Assembly (NCBI RefSeq): GCF_036588685.1
Contig: NC_086379.1
Coordinates: forward strand, 84,072,001 to 84,136,000
DNA: 64,000 nt
Direction of reading: 5' to 3'
Origin: Mytilus trossulus
Taxonomy: Eukaryota
The number at the start of each line of letters is the position of its first letter. The first letter of the stretch is position 1. Shown one piece after another: positions 8,270 through 38,291 of the stretch. The notes beneath the pieces were generated by a model. The model was not told the origin of the DNA. It saw only the letters and a program-made list of their open reading frames with translations, and made no database searches. The position numbers and the translations under genes were made by a program.

Positions 8270-9540
8270 ACATTTTCCCATATTTTGACTATTTTATTTA
8301 TTGTGTCTGTTTATGTAACGCATCAATGTAAATATAACGGAATTTGATGAGACTGTCATTAAAGTGAGAGGGTTAGCGCTATAGAACCAGGTTTAAAATT
8401 TTTTTTTTTTAAATTGTCTGTATGCACATTGAACATCAAATTTATGTGACGTATATAATTTTTCTAACGTCAGACACTCAAATCAATCCATGTGTTCTTA
8501 GACAGTAGATGTTATTGTGTCCTGTTAAATTGTTCCCTTTAAAAAGTTTTGGATTCTCATATATTCTATGTATAATTTTTGGACTAGTTTGAATCTCGGT
8601 CTATTTCTGTAATTTATTCTTACATACTTTTGATTTTTTAACCCTGTATGCGTACATTGCCTATGTAAATTTTAAAATTGTTTGTATGCACATTGAACGA
8701 CAAATTTATGTGACGTATATAATTTTTCTGACGTCGGACACTCAAGTAGATCCATGTGTTCGTGGATAGGTTTTTGTGTCCTGTTAAATTGTTCCTTTTA
8801 AAAGTTTTGGATTCTCATAAATTCTATGTATAACTTTTGGACTAGTTTGATTTCTGTAATTTATTCTTACATACTTTTGATTTTTTAACCCTGTCTGCGC
8901 TCATTGCCTATGTAAAATTTAAAATTGTTTATAATCCAGGTACTTTTGATAACTATTGTATGCACATTGAACGACAAACTTATGTGACGTATATAATTTT
9001 TCTGACGTCAGACACTCAAATCAATCCATGTGTTCGTAGATAGCAGATGTTGTTGTGTCCTGTTAAATTGTTATACGATGATGACTGATGTTCCCATATT
9101 TTGACTATTTTATTGATTGTGACTGTTTATTTAACGCATCATGTAAATGTAACGGAATTTGATGAGACTGTTATTAAAGTGAGAGGGTTAGCTCTATAGA
9201 ACCAGGTTTAATCCACCATTTTCTACATTTGAAAATGCCTGTACCAAGTCAGGAATATGACAGTTCTTGTCCATTCGTTTTTGATGCGTTTTGTTTTTTG
9301 ATTTTGCCATGTGATTATGGACTTTCCAAATTGATTTTCCTCTGAGTTCAGTATTTTTGTGATTTTACTTTTTAATCCACCATTTTCTACATTTGAAAAT
9401 GCCTGTACCAAGTCAGGTATATGACAGTTCTTGTCCATTCGTTTTTGATGCGTTTTGTTATTTGATTTTACCATGTGATTATGGACTTTCCGAATTGATT
9501 TTCCTCTAAGTTCAATATTTTTTGTGATTTTACCTTTTTC
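8270..9540. repeat. Abundant interspersed repeat with internal tandem subunits; other copies at 37432-38291, 39590-39865, 57385-57950
   Basis: Shared core gtgagagggttagcgctatagaaccaggtttaatccaccattttctacatttgaaaatgcctgtaccaagtcagg. Confidence 0.85.
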
Positions 9541-10315
9541 TATTACAAAACACATCAACCTTATTTCTTTCAATCAATAGTTGTCAAATATAATTGTCAA
9601 CACTAAACCTGTCCTTCTATTCTATCAAAGTAAATAGTTTTACTTTACTTATACAATAATATATTTTGTTAAATGATCTACCTAACTCTGCACAAAGAGA
9701 GATAACTCAAAAAATAAAATTATTCGTTTGACTTGACAAAGGACAATTAAACAAGGACAATAACTCTGTAAAAATAATCTAACCAAAATCAATATCTTCC
9801 AGCATGAAAAAATGTATGAGAAACTGATTTGTGATATAGATGGACTGACAACCAGAACATGTTGAAGTCCATTTCAGCTTAAGAGACTAATAACTAATAA
9901 AAAACTTTGATAGGCAAAAACAAATTACAAAAATACTGAACTTAGAGGAAAATCTAATCGGAAAGTCAATAATCACGTGGCAAAATCAAATAACAAAAAA
10001 CATTCATAGAGTAAATAATATATAAAAAATACACCATTTAAAACTAAAATACTGCAAAAACATGTGGTTCTGTTCAATTGGAAGCCTTTAAATCAGTAAT
10101 TGTCGCTTTTTAGTGTTTGTCATATCCTTTTTATAATTAATTTGTTATATATTGGCATTTGGTTTTCTCATTTCTCATTTTAATTTATACAACATTTTAA
10201 ATTGGTAGAAGCGTTTGTTATAGAAGAAATGTGCTGTCCATTTTGTATATAAATATATATTTTGTGTGGTCAGGTCAGTGCAATGACCTCTTTGATACTG
10301 ATTGAATAATAATAT

Positions 10316-10635
10316 TGTTGTATCTTTACCCTAAGCCCCGGGTTCTCCCTATTAGGGGTAGACAACTGATAACATTCTCCCTGCCAGGAGTAGACGATGG
10401 ACACCAATGGGCCTCTGGTTGGATACAGCGGATGTCAGAGCCTGCGCACGCCTGCAGCGCCTTCTTCACCTTATGGTCAACAATACGTTAGACGCAATAT
10501 AACGAAGACACAGTAACAACGCCCGAGTTATAGATAATTACATAATATTTAAGCCTAAGTACTTCTTATATGTATAAAGTCCAGGTCAGGTCCTTTCAAG
10601 GGAAATAGTCTTTCCCCAAGACGAACACCACATTA
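10316..10635 (+). repeat. 5' LTR (TGTTG...CATTA)
   Basis: Matches 20796-21115 with 2 mismatches (aacatt/accatt; cttctt/cctctt). Confidence 0.95.
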
Positions 10636-10636
10636 T

Positions 10637-10659
10637 TGGTAGTTGCGGGTGGTTCGAAC
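10637..10659 (+). promoter_or_regulatory. Primer binding site, resembling the complement of the initiator tRNA-Met 3' end
   Basis: TGGTAGTTGCGGGTGGTTCGAAC starts 1 nt after the LTR; imperfect match to the iMet-type PBS TGGTAGCAGAGGATGGTTTCGA. Confidence 0.7.
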
Positions 10660-11097
10660 ACACATGGTGTGACCTAGTTAGCCATTTTGGTCAGGGAATT
10701 TTGACTAGGTGCAATCAAGCGTGATTTGCAAAATAATTTTGGCTATTATGAGACTTTGCAAGTTGGATTAGGCTTAAAAGAAAAGCTTTAGAAGCGATAC
10801 CTTATTGAGCAAAGCGTTGTAAGATAAGTTATTCACTGTCTGTGAAAGTTTTCAAACTTTGTCCAAGTCATTGATTTTTTTCAGATTGAGTCTCGCGTGA
10901 TTTCGTGTTACCAGGTAACAGCGATACTTGAGATCAATACCGGAAGCGATTTCCGTGATTTGCTTACATATGCAATACACATCTTTGCTATTTGTAAACG
11001 GGATTTAAATCAATAAAGACTTGTTTATTATTTTGTTATTGTGTTGTCATTTATTTATAGTGAAAGTATCACGGAATATAGGGTAATATTCAGCACA

Positions 11098-13031
11098 ATG
11101 AGTGGGTTTAAAATTAAAATAAACTCCAGTCCGGAGTCTGTTCTCCTACATGTACCTGGCATTGGTACGGCTACTGCTCGTAGAATTATAGTAATGAGAA
11201 ATAATGGCATAACAATAACACCAGAAATATTGGCCCAAATACCATATATGAAAAATAAAATGTCACTTGTGTCCGATATGATTTATTTTTCTCCTTGTGA
11301 ATTCAATGACATGGACAATGTTGATGTCAGGTATCAAGGTCAGCCACATGAGTAACAAGACTATGAGACAGATACACATGTAAAATCACACGAGGGAGGG
11401 GCAGCAAATTTTGTTTCCACACCCTTCACCCTGGGTACTATTAGACGGGAAATTGCTCATTTGCAAGAATTTAACACCGATACACAGAGGTGGATAGACC
11501 AACACGGTTCCACACAGGCACCTGTCCAGGGGGGTGTAATTTATCAAAAACCTAATTTACATCAACCGGTTTTTTCTGACTCGGAGATTGCCATGGATAC
11601 AGTGTGGAATTCGCAGGTTGATCGCCCGTCAATGAGATCCATGCCCTCATGCATTGAGGAAAATGAATATCCAACCCAAGAGATGGATCGTTGCAGAATT
11701 TTTGACGATAATCTGTCCTGTAGTGAGGAATCGTTACTTCCCAGCCAGAAGAAATTGACCCAGCATACGGACCACATTATGTAGAATATGAACCGTCAGA
11801 TAAGCCAGATTTGCCAAGTCTAGATCGGTCTATGAGTATTCAGCATGATAGCACCACTATGATAGAGGTTCAGCTGAATCAGCAACCAAGGTTAGTGGGT
11901 GAACATTGTACAGAGTACGAGTCGTCAACTGCTATGAAAGAGCAACATTTCGAGAACACCCACCTCAACGACAGGTTCCAACAAAGTCAATCAACAATTG
12001 AACAGGACTTTAACAGACAGACTAGGGAACCAATCAATCAGCGCAGTAGGTTGTTAGAAAATTCTGTCAACTATATTCAACCGCCACAACCAACAGTTCA
12101 ACTGCCTGTTGAACATACAGTCAACTTCAACCAACGTCAACAAGCTGTTCAACTACCTGTTGAACGTATCAACCAGCGTCAACAAGCTGCAACTCCCTGT
12201 TGAACATAATGACAACTACCCGCGATCAAATACTAGAGCCATTCATCTACTTGGTGGTCACACAGTCACCAACACACAACCAATTCAACAATCAATTCAA
12301 CAATAAACCCGGCATACCATTAGCAACGTACCACATTAATCACACGGCACATCCGTGCTTAACGGACAATTGCCTACTCAACAAGGTTTCAACAGGTCAC
12401 CTCCGACTGTTGCCAACCAACCAATCAACCACAGGGCTACAGGTCAACAACCACCTCAACCCAATTTCAACAGGTCGAACCCTTTACCTGCACTTAGGTC
12501 TACTCCACCCGTCAGGGAAAGGGAACCTTATCAACAACTTCCACCGACCGCTAACAGGGCCAATCAACCACCCTGTCCCAGTTCAACAGGTCAACTACAG
12601 TCAACTAGACAACAAAACTATACCTTTCCAGTCGGTACAGCCGGACAACAAAACAGAGTGATTGATAATCAACAAGATCAACCACCGATCAACCATCCTG
12701 TTAATATATCACATATCAACAGCCATGTTCCACCGACACAACAATTTAACAGAACAGGTCTATACCAACCTAACACCAACCAGTCAGGTTTTCAACAACC
12801 ACTCAATAACACAATGGGTCAGCAGGGGCAAACGCCTCAGGCCATACATAACCAACAGGAATTTTACAGGCAACAACCGGTGCAACATCTCCAAAATGTT
12901 ACTGCACCTATACATCAGACTCAACAGCCATATGGAAATATACCATATTAGCAAGGGAGGCCCTATCCTTCAACAACACCAATCTTGTACAAGGAACGGC
13001 TCAATCAGGGTATTATGACACAGCTCCACAC
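11098..13031 (+). pseudogene. gag: Disrupted 5' part of gag: N-terminal HhH motif followed by a long Q/P/N-rich low-complexity region
   Basis: ATG at 11098 (MSGFKIKINSSPESVLLHVPGIGTATARRII). The fragments at 11041, 11461, 11811, 12109/12355 and 13032 join into one frame across in-frame stops (11353, 12304, 12949) and frameshifts (~11740, ~12190, ~12965). Confidence 0.8.
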
Positions 13032-16000
13032 TTGCCAGTGTACCCACAACAACAGTTGTACAATAACAGTCCACACACTCAGTTTCAGGATCAACGCAGT
13101 ATGTCTAGTATTACGAGCTGCTCAAATAGTGATTCAGATTCATCTAGTTCTACATCAGGGGTAGTGTATCGTCGGAGTCGTCATAAGAGTAGAAGCCACA
13201 AAACACACTCTGGACTCAGTATATCAAGCAGACATGTTTTACCAGTGGAGGAGGAGGCTAGTGAACACTCATCGCCACACCGAAAAAATTCAGGCAAGAA
13301 GCATGACAAAAAGAGGTCAGACAGACATGGTCAGTCGGAAACGGATGGTCACCATTCCTCAAGCAACCGTCATAGAGCGAAGCCAGCTCCAATGCAACAG
13401 GACAAGAAATTTTTCTTTTCGGTGCCCAAGAACCTTAAGTACACAGGGAAAGGCAACTGGAAGGCATTTTACACAAAGTTCACCGGGTACGCTGAGGCTG
13501 CTGGTTGGACGGACAAACAAAAACGAGAACAGCTTTGTTGGTGCTTGGAGGACAAAGCTAGTGATTTTTATACAGTGCTACTTGAATCCAACAAAGACAT
13601 TGCTTTTAGTGCAGTAGTGACTAAAATGGTGAAACGCTTCGGTTTTCAAGAACCACAAGAAACTTCACAGATACAGTTTCAGACTATAACCCAAAAGAAA
13701 GAGGAATCCCTGGAGGATTGGGCGGATCGTGTATTATCCCTGGCGACACAATCCTTCAAAGACCTCTCTGAAGAGTACATGACAAAACAAACAGTAATGA
13801 AATTTTGTCAAGGTTGCAACGACCCAGAGGCTGGACAACACGCATGTGGGTTTAAACCAGTATCGGTTGAAAATGCAATTGATATAATTAAGTGGTATCA
13901 GCATTCAAGAAAGGCTGTGCAAGCCCATATTGCTCAAGGAAAAACACATGAAGTCAAACAGGCGTCAGCTCCAACACCAACAGCACAAGTTAGTGACACA
14001 CCATCAGTGCACGATGTAGGCTCATCTAAACCAAACATAGACACACGAGTATCTCAAATGGAGCAACAGCTTCGTCAACAACGAGAAGAGCAACAACAGA
14101 GCATGCAACAGATGCAAAGCCTACTGTCCTCAATGGCTACACTTACAGAGGAAATGCGACATTCAAACAGATCTAGTGGTACTTCGCCCAGTCGGGACTA
14201 TAGATCAGATAATACCTCACGTGGACGTGGTCAAGGTAGAAGAGATGGTTATAATAATCGTGCTGGTAACCGCAGGTCACAAACCCCAGACGGGGCATGT
14301 TTTTATTGTCATGAAATAGGACATTTCAAAAGAGATTGCCCAAAGTTAAATAACTCACCTGGCAGCAAACCGCCAACTCAGAATAAGCAAACAGAACGCA
14401 AATCAGTTACAATGAATGTGCCAGAGGACAAAGCTACAGAGGGACCATCTAATGGGTTTACTGTGGTAGGAACAATTGGGACTGATCAACTGTTGAGAGT
14501 AAAGGTACAAATCCAGGACAAGCTAGTAACTGCATTGATTGATACGGGCTCAGAGGTTAACATAATGCAGGACAAAGTTTTTGATTCTCTGAAAGAAAAA
14601 CCTTATGTCATTAAAAAGACACTTATGCATGGAGCAGGCCGAGAAATGCAGATGACCTGCAGAATTACTAATCCTACTCTGTTTAGTATACAGGACCTAC
14701 TTTTCAATCACAACTTATATATCGCTCCAATTGACTGTGAGATGCTACTGGGCCATGACTTCTTAGCTAGTAATAATGTTATTCTCAACATTGGTCAAGG
14801 ATACATGTCCATCAACGACAAGACAGTTAAGCTAGTCTTAGGAGGAGAGATACCATCTGCTCAACCCTCAGTCAGCAGAATTACAATACCAAGCTCGGAA
14901 GTAGTCCCACCTAACTCAGTAATGCGAATGAATTGTACAGTACCAGTACAGGATAATGATTTTGTGATAGAACCAAACTCGAAGACTACACTCTTGATTC
15001 CAAGGTCCGTTTGTGCTAAAGGACAAAGTCCTGTTGTTTGTTTTATGAATGTGACGGACAACCCTGTCCGACTCCATGGTGGAACAGAAGTAGCTGAGGC
15101 ACATGCTGTGACCATAATTGAATCTATGGATGACCCTCAAGAGCTAAGTGTTGGTACTTGTTCAACCAGTAAACAGGGTACCAGTCAAAAGGGTACACCA
15201 CCTAAACAAGAGGACCTCCCAGATCATCTCCAAGAACTCTTTACTACATCCAGTCAGGATTTGACATCAGATCAGAAATCAAAACTGAGATCTTTGCTTT
15301 ACACGTACAGTGATGTTTTTGCAAGGACAGAGTTTGACCTTGGTAATTTTAGTCATGTAGAACATGAAATTGATACTGGCGATGCCAGGCCTATTCAGCT
15401 CCGTATGCGGAGAACACCAGCTTGTTTTGTTCAAGAGGAGGAGGCGCACCTCCAGAAAATGTTAGATGCCGGAGTTATACAACCTTCAACATCAGAATGG
15501 GCTTCAGCACCAGTGCTTATAAGGAAGAAAGATGGCGGGGTACGCTGGTGCATTGATTTCCGGAGGCTAAACTCAGTCACATCACGTGATTTATTTCTTC
15601 TGCCCCTGATAGACGAATGTCTGGATACTTTGGCTGGACACATATGGTATTCCAAACTGGACGCTAATAGCGCATATTGGCAAATAAAGATCAAGCCAGA
15701 GGACCGTAAGAAAACTGCATTTGTCACCAAATATGGATTGTTTGAGTGCGTCAAGATGGCATTTGGACTTTGCAACGCACCAGGTACCTATGCCAGAGTA
15801 ATGAACCTGGTACTCAGAGGTTTAACGTGGAAAACTGTTTTGGCTTTCCTTGATGATATATTGGTTCTACGACCATCTTTTGATGAACATCTCACTAACC
15901 TACAGAATGTATTTGCCAGATTTAGAGAGTATGGACTTAGACTAAAGCCTAAGAATTGTGCTTTATTCAGAACCAATGTGGAACTTTTAGGCAGGAGTGT

Positions 16001-18672
16001 CAGTAACCAGGGCCTCCAAATAGGTCAGCAACATTTGCAACCAGTTAGTGGTTGGGTTGTGCCTACTAGCACAATGGAAGTTGAACAATTCCTGGGATTT
16101 GTGAACTACTACCGTTCATTTATCAAGGACTATGCCAAAATATCTGCTCCACTATATGAAGTGACAGGAAAAAAATTGTTTTCATGGAACCATGAACGTC
16201 AACTTGCATTTCAGACGTTAAAAGACAACTTGTTATCTGCACCAGTACTTACTTTGCATAACAACAAGGATTATTTCACCCTGGATACAGACGCCTCCCA
16301 AAATGCAATAGGCGCAGAACTCATTCAGGTGCAAGATGGAGAGGAACGGACCATAGTATATGGTAGCTTTGTACTATGGGCCGAACAAAAACGTTATTGC
16401 ACAACTAGGAAGGAGTTGTTGGCAGTAATTAGATTTACTAGACAGTTCAGACACTACCTTCTGGGAAGACAATTCACTGTGAGGACAGACCATAGTAGTT
16501 TGACATGGCTTGTCAATTTCAAAGAGCCCCAGGGGCAATTAGTTAGATGGTTGGAAGAGCTCAGCCAATATGACCTGGTCATAAAGCATAGGCCTGGTAA
16601 ACAACACATTGCTGCAGATGTCTTGTCTCGTCTCCCGGATAGGTTAAAAGAATGTCCACATTATACTACAGACACCATACCGGCAAGTTTACCTTGCAAG
16701 GGCTGTAATTACTGCCAGCGAGCACATCAAAGTTGGGCACAGATCTTATGTGATGTAGATGAAGCAGTACCACTGGCTAGAAAAAGAAAGCAAAAGCCAA
16801 GATTACTTAAAAGAGTAGCAACAGCAATGATGATGTTATTTGAAACTCCAGAACAGGTTTCAACCTTGGAACAACCTGCAGTACCAGTTGAATCTGCAGT
16901 TACTGACGACTGTTGTTACACTAGCAGCTTAAACTTAATTGAGCCACTAGCAAGCCAGTCATCTGAGGAATGTGATTTACCACCATTCAGTACAAGTATA
17001 GAATTGATTTTTACTCCATCAACGGTAAGAATTGTAATGGATGACTCTTCTGATTGTGTCGTAGCAGCAATCGCACAAGAAGAGGGCATAACCATCTCAG
17101 GTTTCAGTGAAGAGGATATAAAAACAGGCCAAGAGAGTGATCTAGACTTGATGTTTATCCTCCCGTATTTAAAAGATGGCTGTGAACCACTATCCAATGA
17201 TTTGTTCCTGGCACCACCAGCAGCCAAGAGTCACTGGATAAATAAAGAAAGATTTTTCTTAGACAATGGTATTTTAAAGAGTCAACCCAAAACAGAGGGA
17301 GCCAATACAAGACTTGTTGTACTCGCTTCTTTAAGACAAACAGTAATGGAGCTCTGTCATGAACTGCCTAGTGCAGGACATCAAGGTGTATCAAGGACCA
17401 TGTCCAAGATAAAGGACAAATATCACTGGTATAACATGACCAAAGACATTAACTTGTTTGTACTTAGTTGTGATACTTGCAACAAGAACAAGAAAGCGAG
17501 CAGACATAGTAAATGTCCTCTGACCAAGTACCATGCTGGGTACCCTATGGAAAGAGTCCACATAGATTTTATGGGCCCTTTGCCAAAGACGAAACAAAAC
17601 AATGAACATATTTTAATGATGACAGACCAATTCACCAAGTGGACGGAATGTATACCACTACCGTCACAAACGGCGGAAGTAACTGCTCAGGCTGCCATTA
17701 ATGAGTTTTTTTTACAAGATTTGGCTATCCATTCCAGCTATTCTCAGATCAGGGACGTAACTTTGAGAGCGCACTCCTTAAAGCAGTATGTGATTTGCTG
17801 CAAATTCATAAGGCGAGAACGACCCCATATCGTCCTCAGTCAAATGGACAGGTTGAGAGACAGAACCGCAGTCTCATGGATGCAGTCAGATGCTTTGTTG
17901 ATTCACAACAAGAAAGCTGGGATCAACATATTGCTCAACTAGGGGGAGCCATGAGATCTAGTGTCAACAGGAGTACAGGGTATATACCAAACAAGCTAAT
18001 GCTGGGCAGGGGAACCAATCAGCCAGCAGACCTTATGTTCGGCAGTCAGAGCGAAAGGAAGTATGAGGGTGCTGATAGCTATATAATAGACCTTGAAAAA
18101 GCTATTAAAAGTGCGCATACCATTGCTCGGGATAAGCTCAAGACTTCCCAGGAGAGAATGAAGAGAGACTATGACCTAAGGGTCTTAGAAAAATCGTACC
18201 AGCCGGGGGATCTTGTGTATGTTTTAGACACTGCCCAAATTAAGGGTAAATGTAAAAAATTAGGGTCACCATGGAAAGGGCAAGGCATTGTAATTAGTAA
18301 GGTTACCGGTACGTGTACAAGGTGAAACTCCAACGGGTGATTTTTAACACTAATCATGACCGACTCAAGCCATGTGGGGATAGGAAGATTCCTGCTTGGT
18401 TGGAGACGTGTAGGGACAAATTTAAACAAGGTATTGATGTCTTGGCAGGCAATAAGACCAAGCCTACAACCCCTCAGTACTGTGTGTGTCGGGGCCCAGA
18501 CACGGGTGAGACAATGGTCCAATGTGATTATTGTAGGGAATGGTTCCATTTAACCTGCATAGGTATGTCAATCCAAGAGGCCAATGAGATAGATCTCTAC
18601 ATTTGCCCAAACTGCCAACTTGTCCGTCCTACTCCACCCTCAAAAGATAAAAAAGGGGGAGAAAATGAGTAG
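13032..18672 (+). pseudogene. pol: Gag-Pol polyprotein: capsid-like region, CCHC knuckle, aspartic protease, RT, RNase H, integrase, PHD finger; two frameshifts in the integrase region
   Basis: CFYCHEIGHFKRDC (14298-14339); LIDTGS (~14541); RWCIDFRRLN and FLDD (~15846); DTDAS and RTDH; integrase H-x6-H...CDTC, HIDFMGP, then SDQGRNFES and YRPQSNGQVER after a frameshift in a T8 run (17706-17713); second frameshift at ~18310; stop TAG at 18670-18672. Confidence 0.95.
18478..18615 (+). other. PHD finger (C4HC3) at the integrase C-terminus
   Basis: YCVCRGPDTGETMVQCDYCREWFHLTCIGMSIQEANEIDLYICPNC has all 8 zinc ligands at canonical spacing. Confidence 0.93.
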
Positions 18673-18772
18673 GTAACCATATTGTGTAAATAGTCAGTTT
18701 AATTATTGTGTATTAGATACGTAAATTGTCAGTTTAACTAATGTTTGTTTATTTTTTTTCATATTTTTCAGA

Positions 18773-19693
18773 ATGTCAGACTCAGAATCATTCAGGTCTT
18801 GCTCCAGCGAGGGCAGTGAAGATGAGGAAAGGTCTTGGAGGCCAAGTAGTTGTAACTCCCAGCCGGGAGTGGGCATTCAGCCATTTGATACCACAATCTT
18901 GGATGAAGCCAACCACAGGAGAAGGGTCAGGAGGGAAGTACCTGGCCAGGAAGGACCTGTAGAGGATCCCACAGTACTGCCGGAGGTACCAGCAATACCC
19001 CAAGTAAGTGAGTTAAAGGAACAGGAGGAATCTGTACAGGAACCTGGAGAGTCACTTCCTACTCCAAAGGAGCCTGCAGCCGCTCAGGAGGAAGCAGTCA
19101 AGGAAGTCGACCTTATGGCTTTCAAGAAGGTCATTCCAGAGGCTTGGAAGGGGAAGAAGCACCTGGTATGGACAGGACCATACAGTGGGTTCAAGGAAAG
19201 AACCTGGAGACTGAGTGACAGGGATGTCGCGTGCCCTGTCCCAGACTGTCCGGTGATAACCAGGCACTTGAGAGAACATGCCCTAGCTGACCACTTGTCA
19301 GGGATGTTCGGCAGTAAGTTCTCCCAACAGATCTTGCAGGACAGAGAGTTCCAGCATTTCAGAGGCCAGATGGTCATTCTCATTGCCAGATGGTTGACGG
19401 GGAGAGAGGATGTTACAGCCTCTGAGTTTGTATCATGGCTCCAGCGACGAGCCGGCATCCCAGACGGAGTTAGGATTCAGGGAATTGATATGCCCCCGCT
19501 CCGGGCTGTCTGTTCTGCTATGAAATGGCCACAGCGCAGGGTGTATACGATCCACCCATTTAATAGTCCAGTGGTTGTGCTGTATTGGAGGGTGATGTTG
19601 TCCCTTATTAGACATCTCAGCATGGCAAACAGAATAACCATTGCCATGGACGAATACACCGGGAACAACGGTCCCACTTATGACCTAGTCTAA
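18773..19693 (+). CDS. Retrotransposon ORF3, unknown soluble protein (acidic N-terminus, CPVPDC...HLREHALADH zinc-finger-like motif)
   Basis: 306-aa GC-rich ORF inside the element, directly after a branch point, polypyrimidine tract and CAG acceptor (18738-18771). No evident signal peptide or transmembrane helix. Confidence 0.75.
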   Translation: MSDSESFRSCSSEGSEDEERSWRPSSCNSQPGVGIQPFDTTILDEANHRRRVRREVPGQEGPVEDPTVLPEVPAIPQVSELKEQEESVQEPGESLPTPKEPAAAQEEAVKEVDLMAFKKVIPEAWKGKKHLVWTGPYSGFKERTWRLSDRDVACPVPDCPVITRHLREHALADHLSGMFGSKFSQQILQDREFQHFRGQMVILIARWLTGREDVTASEFVSWLQRRAGIPDGVRIQGIDMPPLRAVCSAMKWPQRRVYTIHPFNSPVVVLYWRVMLSLIRHLSMANRITIAMDEYTGNNGPTYDLV

Positions 19694-19696
19694 CAG

Positions 19697-20113
19697 ATGA
19701 ACTGGAAGTTCATGGCAGCTAAAGTTGTGGCAGAGCCCGCCGTGGCTAAGTCCACAACCAGAGTGCCAGCGACAGAGACAAGCTGTAGCTCTAGCTCTGT
19801 GGATGTCCCACAAGTGACACAGCCATTGCAGTCAGTGCCCCAGAGGGAGGAGGAAGAGATGGTCACTCCACCAGTGGAGGAGCCAGTAGCCGTGGCAACC
19901 AAGCCAGAGGAATCATTGGTGGTTCTAGTGTACCACAACACTAGGAAGTTGGTTGGGGTAACATCTGTTGCTAGTGCTGTTGCTCAGGCTAGGGAGGTGT
20001 TTGACCTGGAAGACCAGGAGGTCGTGCTCACCTACCTGGGAGCGGAGCTGACCAGCTCAGTAAGGATGGAGTTGTTGCCAGCCATGGCAGAACTGACAGT
20101 AACACGCAAATGA
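19697..20113 (+). CDS. Retrotransposon ORF4 or C-terminal continuation of ORF3; last ~65 aa resemble a ubiquitin-like (CIDE-N/PB1-type) beta-grasp domain
   Basis: Same frame as ORF3, separated only by TAA-CAG; motif RKLVGVTSVASAVAQAREVFDL...VVLTYLGAEL...LLPAMAELTV. Confidence 0.6.
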   Translation: MNWKFMAAKVVAEPAVAKSTTRVPATETSCSSSSVDVPQVTQPLQSVPQREEEEMVTPPVEEPVAVATKPEESLVVLVYHNTRKLVGVTSVASAVAQAREVFDLEDQEVVLTYLGAELTSSVRMELLPAMAELTVTRK

Positions 20114-20782
20114 GCCATATATGAGATACGTGGATGATATTCTGGACTCTTTTTGGTTTTGGCTTAGCCTCCGCTTCCTGTCTGGAAGCTGTACTCCCCA
20201 GGATTTGAAAACCAGGCCAGTGTATAAATTGTAAAATAGTAGATTAGTGTTGGACATTTTTACATATCGCCATATTGAAGAACGGTATTGGTGTATACAT
20301 TGTTTTTTATGGTCATGGTTTTCACTTTTTGTTCCATGCTGGAACGGGTGCTTAGTAGATTTAGTAGAATAGCAGGTAGTTTAGATTAATTTGAAATTCA
20401 AGGGTAGCTTAATGAACTGACAGAAATAGAGATCTTTGTAAATTTTTGATTATTTGTAGTAGATTTAGTTTTTGTGTATTTTAGAGATATGTGATTCAGA
20501 ATTAGGACAATTCTAAATCGTAGCTCCGAGTAACTGACATGGATTTTTTTTTTTTATTGTCTTAGGCAAATAGTTCAGTGATTTATTTTTTAAATGTCAT
20601 GTTTTAAGGGAAAAGATAAAATTTCAATAGAGACCCAATAGCCAGGGAACAGGGGGGGGGGGGGTGGATTTTAGAAATAACCCATTCGTTGGTTAGGTAA
20701 TTAACTTAGTATTTTGAATTAAAGGCATAAGGGGCGTCTTCAGTTGTCAGGCCTTTGTCAGAACTTATAGTTCCTCCTTTTT

Positions 20783-20795
20783 AGGAAGGAGGGGG
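20783..20795 (+). promoter_or_regulatory. Polypurine tract
   Basis: AGGAAGGAGGGGG abuts the 3' LTR. Confidence 0.9.
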
Positions 20796-21115
20796 TGTTG
20801 TATCTTTACCCTAAGCCCCGGGTTCTCCCTATTAGGGGTAGACAACTGATACCATTCTCCCTGCCAGGAGTAGACGATGGACACCAATGGGCCTCTGGTT
20901 GGATACAGCGGATGTCAGAGCCTGCGCACGCCTGCAGCGCCCTCTTCACCTTATGGTCAACAATACGTTAGACGCAATATAACGAAGACACAGTAACAAC
21001 GCCCGAGTTATAGATAATTACATAATATTTAAGCCTAAGTACTTCTTATATGTATAAAGTCCAGGTCAGGTCCTTTCAAGGGAAATAGTCTTTCCCCAAG
21101 ACGAACACCACATTA
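20796..21115 (+). repeat. 3' LTR
   Basis: Direct repeat of 10316-10635. Confidence 0.95.
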
Positions 21116-21892
21116 ATATGTATACTGCTCTCAGCTCCCTACATGTAATTTCTATTGTGTATGTAATTCAGGTTTATCATCTAATTGTAACAAGACATGT
21201 TGTATCAACAGGTTAATTTTATAAACAAAAATTTACTCACCATAACTTTGAAATAAAACCTTTTTGGAAATCAAAAATCATTAAATAATACATTTTTTTA
21301 TGATTGAACTACTGTAACACATCTCTTTAACAAATCGCACGTGGTAAATGATCACATGACCAGAATTTAAATGTAATTGAAATTAACATAACAAAAGACT
21401 TGATGTACGGTAACTATGATACTTCTTAATAAATACAGGTAGCTTTTGTGAGAAATAAATAAAGATACAAAACATACTTTATTTAAAAAAATATATGGGG
21501 AGAGGTAAAGATATATAGATCGATAATGATTGCAGGTACATGTACATTTGTACAAGGACAGATAATATTTTTAAAGGTTGATGTTAATAATTTATAGTGG
21601 GGTGTTTTTTTTTCTCATTTGATTTTTCCCCGACAAATGAGACTGTAACAATTGGGGCCCCCTTAGTTGCTCCCCTGGGCAACTGAGGGTTGATGTAACA
21701 GGCGATTGTTAATAAAATATGTTTTATATAAAAAAAAAAAAAGAAGAAATGTGCATGTACTATTTGGGGGAAAATAAAAACAAAATAAGGTAAGTACATG
21801 TATATACAAATCGCAAGAAATATTCTATTTGCATACCAAATTTTGATAAACAGTAGTTGAAAGTGAAATAACAAGACAAAAAAAACTTAAAA

Positions 21893-22130
21893 AAAAATCA
21901 AAATGAATAGTCCATTAAACCATGGCAAAATTAAAAATCAAAATGAATAGTCCATTAAACCATGGCAAAATTAAAAATCAAAATGAATAGTCCATTAAAC
22001 CATGGCAAAATGAATAGTCCATTAAACCATGGCAAAATGAATAGTCCATTAAACCATGGCAAAATGAATAGTCCATTAAACCATGGCAAAATGAATAGTC
22101 CATTAAACCATGGCAAAATTAAAAATCAAA
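21893..22130. repeat. Short tandem array of 27/39-bp units (AAAATGAATAGTCCATTAAACCATGGC)
   Basis: 7 copies of the core. Confidence 0.9.
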
Positions 22131-23267
22131 AGCATCAAACGAACTATAAAAAACGATTTGTTTGTAGAAGCTTTCTCACTGGAAACACAATGGTGTTACT
22201 AATCTGGTGACATACATTTTCTTATTCTAAGTTTATGTGTCAATTATTACTCATGCCAAGTATTTCTTTATTTAAAACAAGAATAAGTTAACGGACACGC
22301 AACGGATATGAACGGAAGTCTAACGGATAAGAACGGACGTCCAACGGACATGAACGGATTGAAAAAAAGTTATCCGTTAGACGTCCGTTCGAGCTATCCG
22401 GTAAGGTGTGACCGAGGCTTAACGCAAACTCCAAAAATAAATAGATGAATGATGGATGTATGAAATACCGAGATACGTCTCATAGCTATGCAAATTCAAA
22501 CTCGGTATAACAGTGATTTTCGGGAATAGGTCACGTTGTGTACTTAACAGACATACAACATATATGTTCAACCACAAGGTAAGACATGGTAAACATTAGT
22601 TTAGACACAAACACATCGTATAAATCAACTAATTCGTGATCGTCAGAATTACGAGATAATTTATACTCTGAAACATTCGTGCCACGGATGTAATGTTTCA
22701 CGCACCTCTGTCGTTTACAAAGAGACATTTCTATATCGTATTGCTATCTTTTATATCTAAACAGGTCATTTTGATAAAAATTTACATTAGCACTTGTCTT
22801 CACAAATCATAACGTCAAACTGTTCAATTTGTTTCCGTGTGACCTTTTTTTGTTTTTAAGATTTGAAAAATGCGAGTCCTTTAAAAAGAGGAAAATCATC
22901 CCAGCAAGAAAGAATCAAATTAAGTGTTTAGTTCATTTTTAATTGTTTAAAACATGAACTTTTAACCAAGGTACTAAGTTTTTATTTTAATTAGGCTAAC
23001 CAAATGGAAGGTTTTCGAGAATCAATGGTAATCATGGGCATGTTCTTTTAAAGTTTTTTTCATATCTGAATTCCGATCAGGTCTTTATTTGCGTTAACGA
23101 TACTTGGCGTAATCTGAACGAAACAGAGCATTATGAGTTGCACGAATGTCTTTCACAAAAATTTATTCTTGTGGATCTGGTTTCAAATTTATTCTTTTGC
23201 TAGTTAGTCTTAGAGTAATATCGTCCTGAACATGCATGAAATAATTCCACTGGACGTTAAACAAACA

Positions 23268-24281
23268 TCAATCAATCAACCTTAAGGTAGTGTAACAATC
23301 AATCAACCTTAAGGTAGTGTAACAATCAATCGACCTTAAGGTAGTGTAACAATCAATCGACCTTAAGGTAGTGTAACAATCAATCGACCTTAAGGTAGTG
23401 TAACAATCAATCGACCTTAAGGTAGTGTAACAATCAATCGACCTTAAGGTAGTGTAACAATCAATTGACCTTAAGGTAGTGTAACAATCAATCGACCTTA
23501 AGGTAGTGTAACAATCAATTGACCTTAAGGTAGTGTAACAATCAATCAACCTTAAGGTAGTGTAACAATCAATCGACCTTAAGGTAGTGTAACAATCAAT
23601 CGACCTTAAGGTAGTGTAACAATCAATCGACCTTAAGGTAGTGTAACAATCAATCGACCTTAAGGTAGTGTAACAATCAATCGACCTTAAGGTAGTGTAA
23701 CAATCAATCAACCTTAAGGTAGTGTAACAATCAATCGACCTTAAGGTAGTGTAACAATCAATCAACCTGAAGGTAGTGTAACAATCAATCAACCTTAAGG
23801 TAGTGTAACAATCAATCGACCTTAAGGTAGTGTAACAATCAATCAACCTTAAGGTAGACCTTAAGGTAGTGTAACAATCAATCAACCTGAAGGTAGTGTA
23901 ACAATCAATCGACCTTAAGGTAGTGTAACAATCAATCAACCTTAAGGTAGTGTAACAATCAATCAACCTTAAGGTAGTGTAACAATCACTCAACCTTAAG
24001 GTAGTGTAACAATCAATCGACCTTAAGGTAGTGTAACAATCAATCGACCTTAAGGTAGTGTAACAATCAATCGACCTTAAGGTAGTGTAACAATCAATCG
24101 ACCTTAAGGTAGTGTAACAATCAATCGACCTTAAGGTAGTGTAACAATCAATCGACCTTAAGGTAGTGTAACAATCAATCGACCTTAAGGTAGTGTAACA
24201 ATCAATCGACCTTAAGGTAGTGTAACAATCAATCGACCTTAAGGTAGTGTAACAATCAATCGACCTTAAGGTAGTGTAACA
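23268..24281. repeat. 27-bp minisatellite, ~37 copies (AATCAATCGACCTTAAGGTAGTGTAAC)
   Basis: Direct inspection; nearly homogeneous units. Confidence 0.97.
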
Positions 24282-24676
24282 TTAGTTAGGTTAATTGAAA
24301 GCCATTAAAATGAGCTGTTTTAGATTAATCTACTCTTAGGAGAGTTTTCCGCAGCACTGTCTTATCTGATTTCACAATTAATGAGTATTTGATTCTGCTG
24401 CTCTGAGAGAGAGTTAAATCACTTTGGTACAGACCTCGTTGATTTTATTTGGTTTTGTTTGGGGCAGGCTTGTTTATGAAATTTGTGTGGGATACCGATT
24501 CATGTTTTTGTCATTGTGTCCGTATATCTTAATGATGACGTCTTGAGAATATAGTGTTTCCTTGATTATTCAATTAAGTTAAAATTCGTGATTTGTTTTG
24601 AATATGATCTTTTAGATGACATATGTATACAATGGACTAAATTTTGCATGGAGCAGATGTGGTAAGACATACTTAC

Positions 24677-31269: not shown

Positions 31270-33910
31270 CACATTAGACAGCTTAAGACAGGGTTGGTAT
31301 TCCATGCAATTGTAGCGGCGGCGTTTTTTAAACAGCTAAACATAGGGTTTATATAAAAAAAAATTGTATATTTAGAATGATATTATGGTTAATATGCAAT
31401 GAATATCAAAGTATGCTGAATCTTCAATTTTATACATTTTTACTATATTTTCAAGACTTATAATGTCTTTTTCAGTACCTAGGGATTTCATTTATTTCAT
31501 TACTATTTTTCGGAAGTTCTTATTATATGAACAATTGACAAAAAAATGTTCAAAGTCTTCCTTTTTTACAATGCTTTCATAAATTGTCTTCAGTAATTTC
31601 CCACTTTTTTAAAAGTTAATGACTTGGCAGTTTGTAGTGAATAAGTTTCTATCTAAATATTTTCAATCTATTATCAGTGCGATATTGAAAAATAAAACCA
31701 AAAGTATTATTCAATTTCGAATTTAAAAGTTTCTAAAATATTTTTTCCAACATAAGAAAACCATTTGGTTTATCACAACTATCTTTCAGTGTGAATATTT
31801 TATACAGTTCTTTGGTGCGCATTAAGGGAGTAATTGTCCTGTGCATAATTGTTAAGTCATTTATAACTTTAACTTTAGTTTCGAATGAATCTTCAGTAAA
31901 AAGAATTGTTTCCAATCAATTGGTATTGTTTTTTTTTACATATATATTTATCTTACCCAATTTTGTTTACATTTAAGTTTAGTTAAAATGACACTTTCAG
32001 AGATATTGCCCTGATCATCAATTACATCATTTATATTGATAATGTCACTTTTTATCCAATCTCCAAAGTTTAAACATTTTCCATTAAACCGAATAATATT
32101 ATTTCCCCACAAAACTTGTTTTTTAATTTCAAGATTTTTTTTGGGGATATTTTGTAATACCTCCCTTTACACTTATCCAATCTCTAAGTAGTTGTTTAAA
32201 TTTTTTTTAAATTCATTTTAAATTCAAGAAGATGTTTTCCTAATTTGTTGAAGTAAAATTTGGGAATAATTTTCCAGTTGTCATTTTATTTTCACTTAAT
32301 TTTAGAATCCAGCTGATATGCAGTGATTTTATGTACTCATCAATGTCTGTCATCTTAAGTCAACCTTCCAGAAAATCATTTGAAAGTGTTGATCTATTTA
32401 TTCTATCACTTTTGCCTTTCAATCTAAAGTTTATTAAAGTTTTAAAGTCTTGCAACATTTCCTTAGGAATAATATTGTTTGATGCAACATGTGTTAGCTT
32501 TGGCAGAACTAAAGATTTGATGACAACTATTTTTCCTATGATAGTAAGTTTTCTTTTACTTCAATCAGATATCATTTTTTTTACTTTTTAACAGTTGTTT
32601 TTCAAAGTTAAATTTTTGACATTCTTGTTTATTGTAACCACAGTAAACTCCAAGGCTTTTGCAGTAAACCAACTAATATATTCAAATTTTCCCCGACTTT
32701 GTTTAAATTGACCAAGCCATATTCATTCAGTTTTTGCTTTATTTAATTTAAAACCTGAGAGAGTACCAAATATTTCTATTCAATTAATTGATTGAAGAAA
32801 AATATTAGTATCGTCAGCTTATTGACAATTGTTCAGGGTATTACTTTTAACGTCTAATTTTATTTCTAGTCCTTTTAAGTTTTTATTTTTCCTCATCTTT
32901 ATTGCCATAACTTCTACAGCTAGAACAAATAGTAAAGATGATAACAGACATCCTTGTCGGATCCCGCGATATGCCCTAAAACGGGAGGAAACCAATACAT
33001 TTATTATGTTTTCTTTAATACCAGAGTACATTGTCTGAACCCACCTTAAAAATTATCTTTAAATCCAAGACTCAAACATGAAGTCCCATTCTAATGAGTC
33101 AAATGCTTTTGTAAAATCAAGAAATAAAATTTTCCCATCAATTTTTTCAAAAAGTTTACAAAAGTTCAGAATAGTCTATGACATCTTGCATTGTCGAATG
33201 TTGAAACCAATATACCTATTTTTGACATATCCTTTTTGATCAGTATGTAAAATCTTTGGTAGCAGGGGTTTTAATCGTTGTGCTAAAGCATAAGAGTAAA
33301 ATTTAGCATCATAGTTTAAAAGAGTAATAGGTCTTTAATTATCTAGAGAAAAGGAATCATTCTTTTTATAAATAAGAGATATTAAGCCAACCTTCTGAGT
33401 GGTAGGTAGTTCTCTTTTTTCATACCAGTAATTAAAAGTGGAGACTATAAAAGATTGAAGTTCATCCTAGAATATTCTGTAAACTTCCACATTCAGTCCG
33501 TCAAGCCCGGGCGCTTAATTGAGTTTCATTTTAAAAATTGCATCAGTACATTCAACAGTTATTTCCCCTTCCCATAAATTACTTTCAGAGTTAATTTCTT
33601 ATATTCCTTGGTCAATCTAAATACTTTTTAGTTGCTTCTATTTCATTTTTTTTTGTAGAATATACATTTTTATAATAATTTGCTTAAGTTCTACTTTTAA
33701 TATTTTGTATTGACCAATTGTAATTTGACCTTTATCATCATATAATTGGGCTATTTTTTTTCTATTTTGTCTTGATTTTTCCATCCCTAGAAAATATGCA
33801 GAATTTTTTTCTCCTTCTTCAACCCATTTTACCCGTGCTCTTATTGGATTCCCTTTTATTTTGTCTTTATAGAGATTTCTTATTTTATTTTCTATATTAT
33901 CTATTTCTTT
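31270..33910 (-). mobile_element. 5'-truncated, decayed L1/Tx1-clade LINE in intron 1 of lectin copy A
   Basis: RGIRQGCLLSSLLFVLAVEVMAIKMRKNKNLKGL, ADDT, PITLLNYDAK and DFTKAFDSLEWDF motifs; absent from the other duplication arm. Confidence 0.8.
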
Positions 33911-34007
33911 TAATATGTTATTATTGTAAAGTAACGACGAAAGCTGACATGGATCATAATAGATGAAAATACGAAAAGAAAGAAAGGCAAAGAAATGTAA
34001 AACTTAC

Positions 34008-34308
34008 CTGTTTTTTCAATATATAAAACAGAGCTTGTCTCAGAAGCTTCTATTTCGGGACACACGTCTGTTACATGAAGGTAGCACTTGTGTGATGAGG
34101 TGTTAAAACTTGCAGTCCGACATCCTTCCTCCATAGCACATTGCAATGCACACTCAATTTTACTTCTGGAAACATATGATTTAAGACTGCTGATCCCAAC
34201 ACTGCTGTAACCACTTTTTAAATAAAATATGAAAGTATTACCTCGTCCAACAATGTGATTAAATGAAAGTATAGAAATTATGATGCAAAAAGTAAATTTC
34301 AAGCCCAT
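34008..34308 (-). CDS. PAN/Apple + C-type lectin gene, copy A, coding exon 1 (signal peptide + PAN/Apple domain)
   Basis: MGLKFTFCIIISILSFNHIVG signal-like N-terminus; IECALQCAMEEGCRTASFN...CYL PAN pattern; ends in phase 1 at AG|GTAAGT; 301 nt. Confidence 0.85.
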
Positions 34309-37300
34309 TTTTGAGTGTACTCGAATAATGAAAGAAATAAAAGCATATATGTATACGTCATGGAAGTTCAAACTATATGCAAAGATTCATTCAGCGAATC
34401 AAAAACATCCGATAGATAAGTGTTTATACCCTTGGTTTGTCAAAAATCAATGTGTCCACTATATATTTCTCACTAAAATCTATTTATATTCTTAATATTT
34501 TGCGTGTTATTAATCATTAGTCGAATATCTAATGTTTGTAGAAATAAGTTAATCAATAATAAAACAAGTTTCAGTGTTTTTATATATACATTTAGGTCTG
34601 AACAAGTAACAACTCTACGACAGATCCATCCATTTGAACACTAATGAAGTTGATAAATGACTGTACGCATATTTAAATGTTTATTCATTATAACTCTAAA
34701 TATCAGCACATTAATGTTTAATCGAAAACATTGCAGAAACAAAGTGTGTTTTTCCGGCATTCGAACTTATACTAATGAGATATCGGGACTTCCGGCAGAG
34801 TGTCCACCAATCAAGACACTCGACCTTTTAGACTGAACCAATAATCCAGCTTTAGGTGGGCTAGTGTTACTTAAGTTGAAACACATGATATAGTAGACAT
34901 GTAAATGATGGCAATGGATTAACACCAACAAAACTTAATATCTCACCATAGAAAATCCTATTAACGTTTCCTTCCGGTAATATTCACTCACCTCGTCCAA
35001 ATTGTATTGCTATTGTATTCTTAAAAACGATTATATCCCTTTGAGATGTAACGTGAAATATGATTAACTTTTTGTTTGACACTTTAACCCACTTATGTGT
35101 TTTTTTAATTGACGGGTAATATGATATTCTAGCATAATTAAAAAAATTCTCGTTTATTCTTTTAATGATTAGCCATATGTTTTATTTCTATTGTGGAAAG
35201 AAATAAACTTCACTTCTCTGCATAATCCAATGACACTAAATCCATTTCATCAATTTAATTAAATATCCATATTCGGCACCTTCTGAAGGGTGATGTGAAT
35301 CAGATTAGGATATCTAAAGGTCAATTAATTAATGGGGCCAAAATAAGCCCAAAATCCAGTTGCTCCCTAATTATATTGTTGTTTTTAATCTATGAAAGGA
35401 CTTAAGAATGCCATAATGTCCTTTTTTAAACCTTTTCATTGATATTTTTACTTTGCAGTTTTAATTTTTGATTTGGTTCAAAACTGAGATGATACAAAAT
35501 CAACCTTTAGTTTATTAGTGATGACATGACAATAATTTTAGAAATGATGTTATAATGACAAAGGGAAACTTTCAGGGTTTGCGTGAAAATATGTGAGTTC
35601 TAGTTGATTTCTAAAAGTTAGTGGAAATTGAAGTTTCTACTATAAAAAACTAAACCTATTTTGGTTTTTGGTTAACTCTTGTTATAAATACCTTTAATAT
35701 AAGCCTTTGAAAATCACAATGTACCATATCCAATTTCCATCCTTCCTTTGGTCGTGCGTTGTCAGCATTATCCGATCTACATTTGTCTTAAATTATGCAG
35801 AATGTGTCTATTATACAGTTGATTATGTTGATATTTTTTCAGTATGAATAACTTCACAAAGATTTTTCTAGTGTATCAATTTCCCGACATGATAATAAAT
35901 TGTATGTATCATTGGTCAGAAATGTTTGATCTGTACATGTTAAAAGACTTTTAAAGGATATCAACAACACCTGCTTATTATATTTTTTTAGTAATTGAAA
36001 CACTCGGACACTTGTCAAAAACAATGGAAAAAAATCAGAGATGTTCCTTAACTTTTTGTTTAGACACTGGTAAAATTTTACAAAGTCTAATTAAGTGCTG
36101 CATGCTTTTGTATACCGAATAAGTTTGGTAATGAATATCCCATATGCAGGTTTTAACATCTTAATGTGAAAGTAAATGACCTAGTTTTTGTTTTGTTTTT
36201 GACAAGTGTCTGAAGGAACTCCGATTCATATGAAAATAAGAACAGTCGTTCCCATACATATACATGCCATAGGAATTCCAACAATTTGTTGAAAAAGTCT
36301 ACCTTCAAATTCAACAAATATGTTGTAATATAAAAAGCTCAAGGATCCTGATCACTTATTCTCTGTGTATCATGTTGACCTTTTGTTCGTTTTTAATAAG
36401 ACGGTTTATCTCGTTTATAAGATAAACCAATGTCATGAAAGAGAAATGATGACTGCATCATTCGGATGCGGTTCTCGTTTCCCGCCAATCAACGTCACAT
36501 GACTCTTTGACATTACATTGAACTAGCCACTCCTGTAGATATGTAAAAGTTTTAAAAAATGAAATCGTAAAAAAGTCAGTGACATCCGCAGGTTATATTT
36601 CAATATTTTGATATGAAACTATCGTATAGGCAAGGTAATTCTTCAAATAAGAATTTTCATTTGCAAGGTCCAGCAAATGACGTAAATTAAAGGTAAACCG
36701 AACTGTCACCATACGATTTGATGCCATCAACACGAGGACACCTCCAACTTATTTCTACATGCATGGTTGTGTAACGATCATAGAACAATTTAATTAATTT
36801 ATCTTCACCATAAAAGTTATACAATGCGCCAATTACAGGGACAGCTTCCGATTTGTCAGTGGCTCATGGACCGGTGATCAATTGAATGACAGAACAAAAT
36901 TTTCGAATTAAGCCCCATTTATAATTCAACACGGCACAACATGCGCAAGGAAAATACGATTCAAAAGAACAGGAGAACCACTGATCCAAAGAATTCATAA
37001 CCTGGTTCCAGCGGTTTTAGGAATTTCGTCAAACATTAATCTTGGTATGTTGAATTTTAAGATAAAAAATTTGATGTTTTGTGGCGTATATAATTATTCT
37101 AATTCATGTTTATCTTATAATGAATAAGATTAATCTGATAATGATACAGATAAGATTACTGAAAGAATTATTTATTGTTAGTATTTGATGTCATATATTT
37201 AATTTGAATTTCACATGAGCAGAAAGATCGCACTTTGACTTTAATCAGAGACATAAAATATCTCTGCTTTAATGTACACTATTTCATATCAACATACAGT

Positions 37301-37431: not shown

Positions 37432-38291
37432 CTGTGTCCTGTTAAATTGTTCCCTTTAAAAAGTTTTGGATTCTCATATATTCTATGTATAATTTTTGGA
37501 CTAGTTTGAATCTCGGTCTATTTCTGTAATTTATTCTTACATACTTTTGATTTTTTAACCCTGTATGCGTACATTGCCTATGTAAATTTTAAAATTGTTT
37601 GTATGCACATTGAACGACAAATTTATGTGACGTATATAATTTTTCTGACGTCGGACACTCAAGTAGATCCATGTGTTCGTGGATAGGTTTTTGTGTCCTG
37701 TTAAATTGTTCCTTTTAAAAGTTTTGGATTCTTATAAATTCTATGTATAACTTTTGGACTAGTTCGATTTCTGTAATTTATTCTTACATACTTTTGATTT
37801 TTTAACCCTGTCTGCGCTCATTGCCTATGTAAAATTTAAAATTGTTTATAATCCAGGTACTTTTGATAACTATTGTATGCACATTGAACGACAAATTTAT
37901 GTGACGTATATATTTTTTCTGACGTCAGACACTCAAATCAATCCATGTGTTCGTAGAAAGTAGATGTTGTTGTGTCCTGTTAAATTGTTATACGATGATG
38001 ACTGATGTTCCCATATTTTGACTATTTTATTGATTGTGACTGTTTATTTAACGCATCATGTAAATGTAACGGAATTTGATGAGACTGTTATTAAAGTGAG
38101 AGGGTTAGCGCTATAGAACCAGGTTTAATCCACCATTTTCTACATTTGAAAATGCCTGTACCAAGTCAGGAATATGACAGTTCTTGTCCATTCGTTTTTG
38201 ATGCGTTTTGTTTTTTGATTTTGCCATGTGATTATGGACTTTCCAAATTGATTTTCCTCTGAGTTCAGTATTTTTGTGATTTTACTTTTTA
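37432..38291. repeat. Near-identical copy of ~8515-9372
   Basis: Collinear, with very few differences. Confidence 0.9.

Follow-up and report, generated by a model that had tools for sequence, protein, structure and literature searches.

Results

The window analysed here is a 64,000-nucleotide stretch of the Mytilus trossulus genome (contig NC_086379.1, positions 84,072,001 to 84,136,000), and it carries a 10.8-kb Ty3/Gypsy element that, including both LTRs, occupies positions 10316-21115 (Table 1). Direct LTRs with a 4-bp target-site duplication and a Gag capsid followed by protease, reverse transcriptase (RT), RNase H, and integrase place the element in Ty3/Gypsy, and the Pfam matches within it run in the order capsid, CCHC, protease, RT, RNase H, integrase, PHD. 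All nine of the closest proteins come from Mytilus edulis, M. galloprovincialis, or M. coruscus. The LTRs terminate in TG...TA and not in TG...CA (positions 10635 and 21115); a CA is found three bases further in, and the 4-bp target duplication consists of A and T only. X24 and X14 reads leave position 10315 into sequence resembling the right flank, which would correspond to an empty site or to another copy of a host repeat.

Table 1. Features of the Ty3/Gypsy element in the window
Feature	Positions	Strand	Basis and remarks
Left target-site duplication, 4 bp	10312-10315	.	Same four bases at 21116-21119
5' LTR, 320 bp, ends TG...TA	10316-10635	+	318/320 identical to 3' LTR; loose read ends behind 10635
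PBS-like stretch, TGG start	10637-10659	+	Sequence read directly; one base past LTR
ComEA-type HhH, Gag residues 1-65	11098-11292	+	Pfam, AlphaFold2 model, fold and profile searches
Gag linker, long, P/Q/S/T/N-rich	11293-13406	+	ORF list, tblastn with P0105, composition
Linker stops in this copy	11353, 12304, 12337, 12949	+	ORF list
Linker frame breaks	near 11736-11748, 12187-12245, 12981-13011	+	ORF list, tblastn with P0105
Gag capsid domain	13407-13946	+	Pfam PNMA 30.1 bits, Retrotrans_gag E 6e-4
CCHC zinc knuckle	14295-14345	+	Pfam zf-CCHC E 7e-4, 20.1 bits (slightly below the cut-off of 20.8)
Aspartic protease, in the gag frame for the family of the window element	14499-14768	+	Pfam gag-asp_proteas
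Reverse transcriptase and RNase H	15432-16571	+	Pfam RVT_1, RT_RNaseH
Integrase over three frames; breaks near 17705 and 18301-18325	17313-18408	+	Pfam Integrase_H2C2, rve; profile matches
PHD finger, PHF2/PHF8-like, integrase C terminus	18478-18618	+	Pfam PHD 44.9 bits
ORF3 (third gene), stop 19691-19693	18773-20113	+	Homology to ORF3 of relatives; single frame in P0105 and P0006
Polypurine tract	20783-20795	+	Sequence read directly
3' LTR	20796-21115	+	LTR comparison
Right target-site duplication	21116-21119	.	Sequence read directly

The copy in the window is interrupted by at least five stops and at least five frame breaks, yet its LTRs differ at only 2 of 320 bases; the element is young but broken, probably a recent copy of an already dead template that was mobilised by working copies. 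Some of the frame breaks may be assembly errors. Among the rows listed for four public runs, other copies differ from the window at three of the four linker stops and at two of the three linker breaks. One raw RNA run gave 271 reads across 10.6 kb of the element, mostly with the first mate on the + strand, an orientation that in most stranded libraries denotes antisense RNA; expression of the element is thereby not demonstrated. A splice joint to ORF3 was not seen among these 271 reads.

Outside the element, an ORF with a PAN domain (positions 33910-34386 on the - strand; Pfam PAN_1, 30.6 bits) is probably a host exon. Arrays of a 27-bp tandem repeat fill positions 21872-24300, and the long minus-strand ORF at 23268-24281 is part of them. 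A dispersed AT-rich repeat of ~1 kb is present in three copies (8272-9522, 37433-38275, and 57354-57937), two of them nearly identical. Matches to leucine-rich repeats were rejected as composition matches.

The first domain of Gag was examined by profile and structure comparison. The peptide quoted in the first-pass annotation was confirmed from the ATG at 11098, within the open frame 11017-11355, and Pfam HHH_3 matched residues 5-54 with 27.2 bits (cut-off 27; E 4e-6). HHH_3 was likewise matched by all 16 aligned family members at E <= 0.01. The AlphaFold2 model, built from an alignment of 9 sequences, reached a pLDDT of 86.7 and, among 48,161 chains searched, lay nearest to ComEA (8dss; Z 10.2, rmsd 2.1, 65 aligned residues), followed by the ComEA-related 2duy (Z 8.4) and Tex (Z 8.0) and then by TEFM (5.7) and Spt6 (5.4). 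Foldseek also ranked 8dss at the top (TMq 0.81), yet with an E of only 0.01. In a search with a profile of 16 sequences, EEPD1 (PDB 9yi2) ranked highest when scores were summed, and ComEA when single domains were scored (39.9 versus 30.7 bits for EEPD1). A homodimer prediction for the domain, run without an alignment, scored 0.06 against a mark of 0.32, a value that argues neither for nor against a dimer. Overall, the results confirm that positions 11098-11292 encode a ComEA-type helix-hairpin-helix (HhH) domain, which ends at approximately residue 65.

In the window copy, the HhH is not contiguous with gag because its frame ends at 11353-11355, leaving an ORF of 85 residues. The Mytilus gene models P0105 and P0006, both predictions, follow the window in collinear order from the HhH as far as the capsid or the protease. 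Relatives were collected with a capsid query (13 loci from metagenomes and 8 from prokaryote assemblies) and with an RT query (53 loci, of which 5 were shared with the capsid set). HhH and capsid share one open frame in 22 of the 28 related loci that have both parts and are broken apart in the other 6. An extra match in locus L019, weak and partial, lies in the capsid frame, and in L021, a decayed locus with sufficient flank, the HhH was not detectable. A capsid-only search returned eight proteins: the seven close ones start with or inside the HhH, and the distant eighth (26%) is without it. Because a single assembly (Sedimenticola sp. isolate 2 TCF1) supplied many of the loci, these represent distinct families and not distinct hosts. 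Gypsy contigs filed under symbiont names are presumably animal DNA binned with the symbionts.

These data bear out the HHH_3/ComEA pattern noted in the first-pass annotation and its remark that this is not a standard Gag domain. The proposed span of 11098-11260 was right at its start and slightly short at its end. That Gag itself begins with the HhH describes the relatives well, and in the window copy the frame is broken. The HhH profile match was significant, and in intact relatives the domain is contiguous with gag.

Many of the Gypsy elements lie in assemblies named Sedimenticola sp. or SUP05 (L014-L020, L022-L029, and L032-L043), likely as host DNA. Separately, P0047, an HhH-Gag fragment of Mytilus coruscus, is labelled ZFHX4 in NCBI and UniRef, which is evidently a misannotation.

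Across 120 pairs of 16 Gags, mean identity was 37% in the HhH, 49% in the capsid, and 14% in the linker, which varies in length from 89 to 724 residues. HhH similarity tracks capsid similarity in the same 16 Gags (Mantel r 0.29, p 0.006). In a tree of HhH sequences, a single branch (support 100/99) splits 24 Gag-type rows from 44 non-Gag rows, the latter being every fourth of 173 matches and EEPD1 being absent from the tree; 5 of the 24 Gag-type rows (P0010, P0032, P0058, P0070, and P0096) were assigned by likeness, their proteins showing no capsid. Judged from these sequences, the Gag HhH may stem from a single capture. It may be a captured ComEA/EEPD1-type fold, for which bacterial ComEA and host EEPD1 are candidate donors.

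The distribution of the domain was traced on an RT tree of 51 rows, built only from the loci collected here, from which loci with <140 RT positions were excluded and which is rooted at the midpoint only. A core clade of 25 rows (SH-aLRT 98) has the HhH in 22 (L019 having been added by hand), and the three negative rows, L009, L030, and L031, stop short of the gag start. A PHD finger follows the integrase in all 12 core elements that extend past it. TatD is found in 10 of the 11 core elements that are complete to the end of ORF3 (interrupted in L005), the exception being the family of the window element; of 4 ORFs checked, 3 had complete TatD motifs. The assemblies of 11 long relatives collapse or cut repeats at the LTRs. 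Two members of the sister clade, L032 and L036, also have an HhH (Pfam E 7e-4 and 8e-6, respectively), and L035 is truncated by a contig edge. L032 combines an HhH-Gag and TatD with a complete integrase that has no PHD; the HhH therefore predates the PHD, or the sister clade has lost its PHD. No HhH was found in L040, L041, and L042, which are more distant and have a complete gag start. Searches of viral contigs by capsid or RT returned no relative, and Atlas searches returned only leads <0.9. We conclude that the Gag HhH is a marker of an old Ty3/Gypsy lineage of marine invertebrates, seen in Mytilus and presumably shared by other hosts.

In all seven intact relatives tested, pol lies in a separate -1 frame, so that most Gag molecules would lack a PHD, making the HhH abundant and the PHD scarce. 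In the family of the window element, gag and pol form one frame.

We then compared the residues that bear on DNA binding. Two positions, G23 and R34, are invariant in the 37 aligned Gag HhH domains, and N9 (34/37) and G21 (33/37) are largely kept. By spacing, G23, T26, and R34 correspond to G60, K63, and R71 of Vibrio cholerae ComEA, the lysine position having been mapped through 8dss. The first GhG hairpin is intact in the window HhH and the second is degenerate; an intact second hairpin occurs in none of the 37 Gag domains versus 112 of 167 non-Gag matches. The ComEA lysine (K63/K164 in V. cholerae/B. subtilis) is replaced by threonine (T26) in the window copy and is Lys or Arg in 4 of 37 Gag domains; only 27 of the 167 non-Gag controls (those scored of 173 matches, a set biased toward the query) have Lys or Arg there. 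A Lys or Arg directly after the first hairpin is present in 21 of 37 Gag domains. The mean net charge of 21 Gag HhH domains is about zero (-0.3), and a clade-specific C-terminal (D/S)-F motif has F or W in all 37.

Published passages on ComEA indicate how these positions matter. In V. cholerae, bulky changes at G60 abolish transformation, K63A lowers it about 250-fold, and ComEA minus either HhH motif behaves as non-binding (passages of PMC3879209); the equivalent change in Geobacillus stearothermophilus, K166A, gives no DNA shift (passages of PMC9747964), and both sources describe this lysine as required for DNA binding. With its second hairpin lost and the key lysine rare, the Gag domain is therefore ComEA-like in fold and fails two ComEA features. 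With a single intact hairpin, weak binding is to be expected, and the many copies on a particle could amplify it. We consider it likely that the Gag HhH, a putative dsDNA-binding domain, does bind dsDNA.

At the other end of the polyprotein, the best PDB matches of the PHD finger are PHF2 (E 3e-16), PHF8, KDM7A, CXXC1, and BPTF. Residues Y/F, M, and W, at what we take to be the aromatic-cage positions of an H3K4me3-reading PHD, are found in the window domain and in 5/5 loci listed. ORF3 begins directly after a splice-acceptor-like sequence that precedes its ATG, and in the window element it contains a conserved Cys2-His2 and a helical core (19208-19690), in a family without TatD. The core was modelled at a pLDDT of 85; its best fold match reached Z 3.2 (pdb_via_wide), and Foldseek gave no match at E <= 0.001 in PDB or BFVD, a result that does not prove a new fold.

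Several further observations concern third genes. The conserved core, with its Cys2-His2 and a helical bundle, spans ~150 residues and precedes TatD in relatives (L004:7599-8072, L005, L010, and L020). In the window, the position that TatD takes in the relatives is occupied by a C-terminal domain of ~65 residues (19910-20110) that by eye suggests a small alpha/beta fold and for which Pfam gave no family at cut-off. In L037, a Gypsy element that is more distant, the third ORF (L037:7304-8113) looks by eye like an SGNH/GDSL hydrolase, with no Pfam match at E 0.01, and the outgroup ORF3 sequences L040:7637-8932 and L061:3055-4065 have C2H2-like zinc fingers and, over the part covered, no TatD.

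Discussion

In retroviral and Ty3 Gag proteins, the residues that precede the capsid domain are usually found outside the shell, and the HhH would accordingly face outward on the particle. Our best reading, which we hold tentatively and somewhat short of probable, is that it would act as a multivalent weak DNA tether that keeps the particle or pre-integration complex on chromatin. Through the remaining intact hairpin, the HhH would bind dsDNA weakly and irrespective of sequence, and hundreds of copies would be suspended from the capsid by the flexible linker, so that weak binding would sum and host chromatin would retain the particle or complex. In elements that have one, the PHD of the integrase would then bias the final site toward H3K4me3 chromatin. 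For the tether count the fold and profile match to ComEA/EEPD1, the finding that 22 of 28 loci read HhH and capsid as a single open frame, and the invariance of G23 although the second hairpin has lost its glycines, together with the precedent of murine leukemia virus (MLV) p12 and foamy virus Gag, which passages of PMC12336834 describe as tethering integration complexes to chromatin. Against it count the second GhG hairpin absent from 37/37 domains, the rarity of the key lysine, the near-zero charge, the HhH without PHD in L032, and the binding of p12 and foamy Gag to nucleosome protein and not to DNA (passages of PMC12336834). The first-pass annotation had called the module an established DNA-binding one and had suggested that it could tether particles or cDNA to chromatin in concert with the PHD; the former is true of ComEA and does not carry over to the Gag HhH as established, and the latter agrees with co-occurrence in the core clade, where the pairing is regular, but the partnership is not obligate.

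Other roles would use the same fold differently. The HhH could bind the element's own cDNA, compacting and shielding it like BAF, which would block self-integration and hide the cDNA from cytosolic DNA sensors, with the ORF3 TatD clearing surplus or damaged cDNA. One working hairpin beside a degenerate one is a BAF-like trait, and the HhH accompanies a TatD-bearing ORF3 into the PHD-less sister lineage (L032). We nevertheless regard a cDNA shield as unlikely: a domain outside the shell would be apart from the cDNA until uncoating, the family of the window element keeps the HhH without TatD, and no BAF chain appears among the fold matches listed. These points stand against passages of PMC3381236 in which BAF binds dsDNA through an HhH motif, compacts viral DNA, and prevents autointegration.

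Repurposing as a protein-contact module for Gag assembly, trafficking, or a host partner, with nucleic acid binding lost, would fit the missing second hairpin, the rare lysine, the neutral charge, and the conserved (D/S)-F motif, and HhH-type folds with other jobs (GspK and PsbU) do occur in the fold list; it appears improbable to us, as G23 is invariant and G21 nearly so, whereas hairpin 2 has lost the same glycines without loss of the fold. We give little credence to binding of RNA or DNA-RNA hybrids, such as Tex/Spt6-like pick-up or export of genomic RNA. A retrotransposon Gag first meets RNA, and Tex, TEFM, and Spt6 rank after ComEA in the fold search, but sequence and fold are nearest to ComEA and EEPD1, Gag already has a CCHC knuckle, and the HhH is not basic on average. 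A chance motif or unrelated fragment upstream of gag might be suspected from the 85-residue ORF that ends in the window copy and from a Pfam score barely above cut-off; this is already refuted by the 22 of 28 loci in which HhH and capsid are read in one frame, by conservation well above that of the linker, and by the confident model, and we assign it next to no probability.

To our knowledge, the route to chromatin and the choice of site are known for few lineages of animal LTR retrotransposons. In the present lineage, the modules at the two ends, the HhH on Gag and the integrase PHD, are small, soluble, and open to separate testing, and natural variants that have or lack PHD or TatD exist for comparison. 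Many HHH_3 proteins annotated as "uncharacterized" in mussels are explained as retrotransposon parts, and so are HHH_3 or TatD genes recorded on contigs under symbiont names; such likely host sequence among symbiont bins will give rise to spurious bacterial TatD and HHH_3 records. A wider proposal, which we regard as rather doubtful, is that the lineage itself encodes counterparts of three helpers, which retroviruses borrow from the host or make in another way, namely a multivalent Gag DNA tether or BAF-like shield, an integrase H3K4me3 reader steering insertion to active promoters, and a TatD trimming or clearing cDNA; if so, its Gag would be the first one known that holds chromosomal DNA directly by means of a folded HhH, possibly derived from a bacterial competence protein. 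If true, the tether would be a third chemistry alongside p12 and foamy Gag.

In its LTRs, target-site duplication, PBS-like site, polypurine tract, capsid-CCHC Gag, and PR-RT-RH-IN order, the window element resembles other Ty3/Gypsy elements (Metaviridae), including the mollusc clades of Thomas-Bulle et al. 2018 (PMC6238403, as represented by its main text, in which the terms "PHD" and "helix" are absent). Unlike usual Ty3/Gypsy elements, its lineage has a Gag N-terminal HhH, a PHD past the integrase, and an ORF3 with a Cys2-His2/helical core and usually TatD. A literature search that largely excluded subscription papers and Repbase reports found no description of an HhH-Gag, a PHD-integrase Gypsy, or a TatD-Gypsy, and the passages available of PMC13524379, PMC8220671, PMC5408684, PMC2836005, and PMC12440569 do not mention HhH. 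The HhH-Gag Ty3/Gypsy element is a real, clade-wide, new variant, the function of which we infer.

Partial likenesses exist on several sides. The Juno and Vesta elements of bdelloids also have a nuclease as third gene, but a DEDDy exonuclease and not TatD (passages of PMC5408684), and the Ginger1-9_HM transposase also has a PHD behind a Gypsy-like integrase, but Ginger is a DNA transposon (passages of PMC2836005). The one literature match, on C. elegans Cer1 CERV/GAG, describes an H domain as "helix-hairpin-helix" beside a Gypsy gag, whereas this domain has a leucine zipper and the passage concerned (PMC10309623) makes no tie to the GhG DNA-binding motif. With ComEA (HHH_3; 8dss and 2duy) and animal EEPD1 (9yi2), the Gag HhH has in common the fold, the IN motif, the first GhG, and the arginine matching R71 (37/37), and it differs in the lost second hairpin, the rare lysine, and its occurrence as a single domain fused to a capsid protein. 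BAF is alike in non-specific dsDNA binding through an HhH at the pre-integration stage, but it is a host protein that acts as a dimer (passages of PMC3381236), and no match to it in sequence or fold is among those listed. Finally, as in MLV p12 and foamy Gag, a Gag-encoded part is proposed to hold the integration complex while a reader on the integrase side picks the site; p12 and foamy Gag are short peptides on the nucleosome acidic patch (passages of PMC12336834), whereas the Gag HhH is folded and putatively DNA-binding, so that the analogy is functional only.
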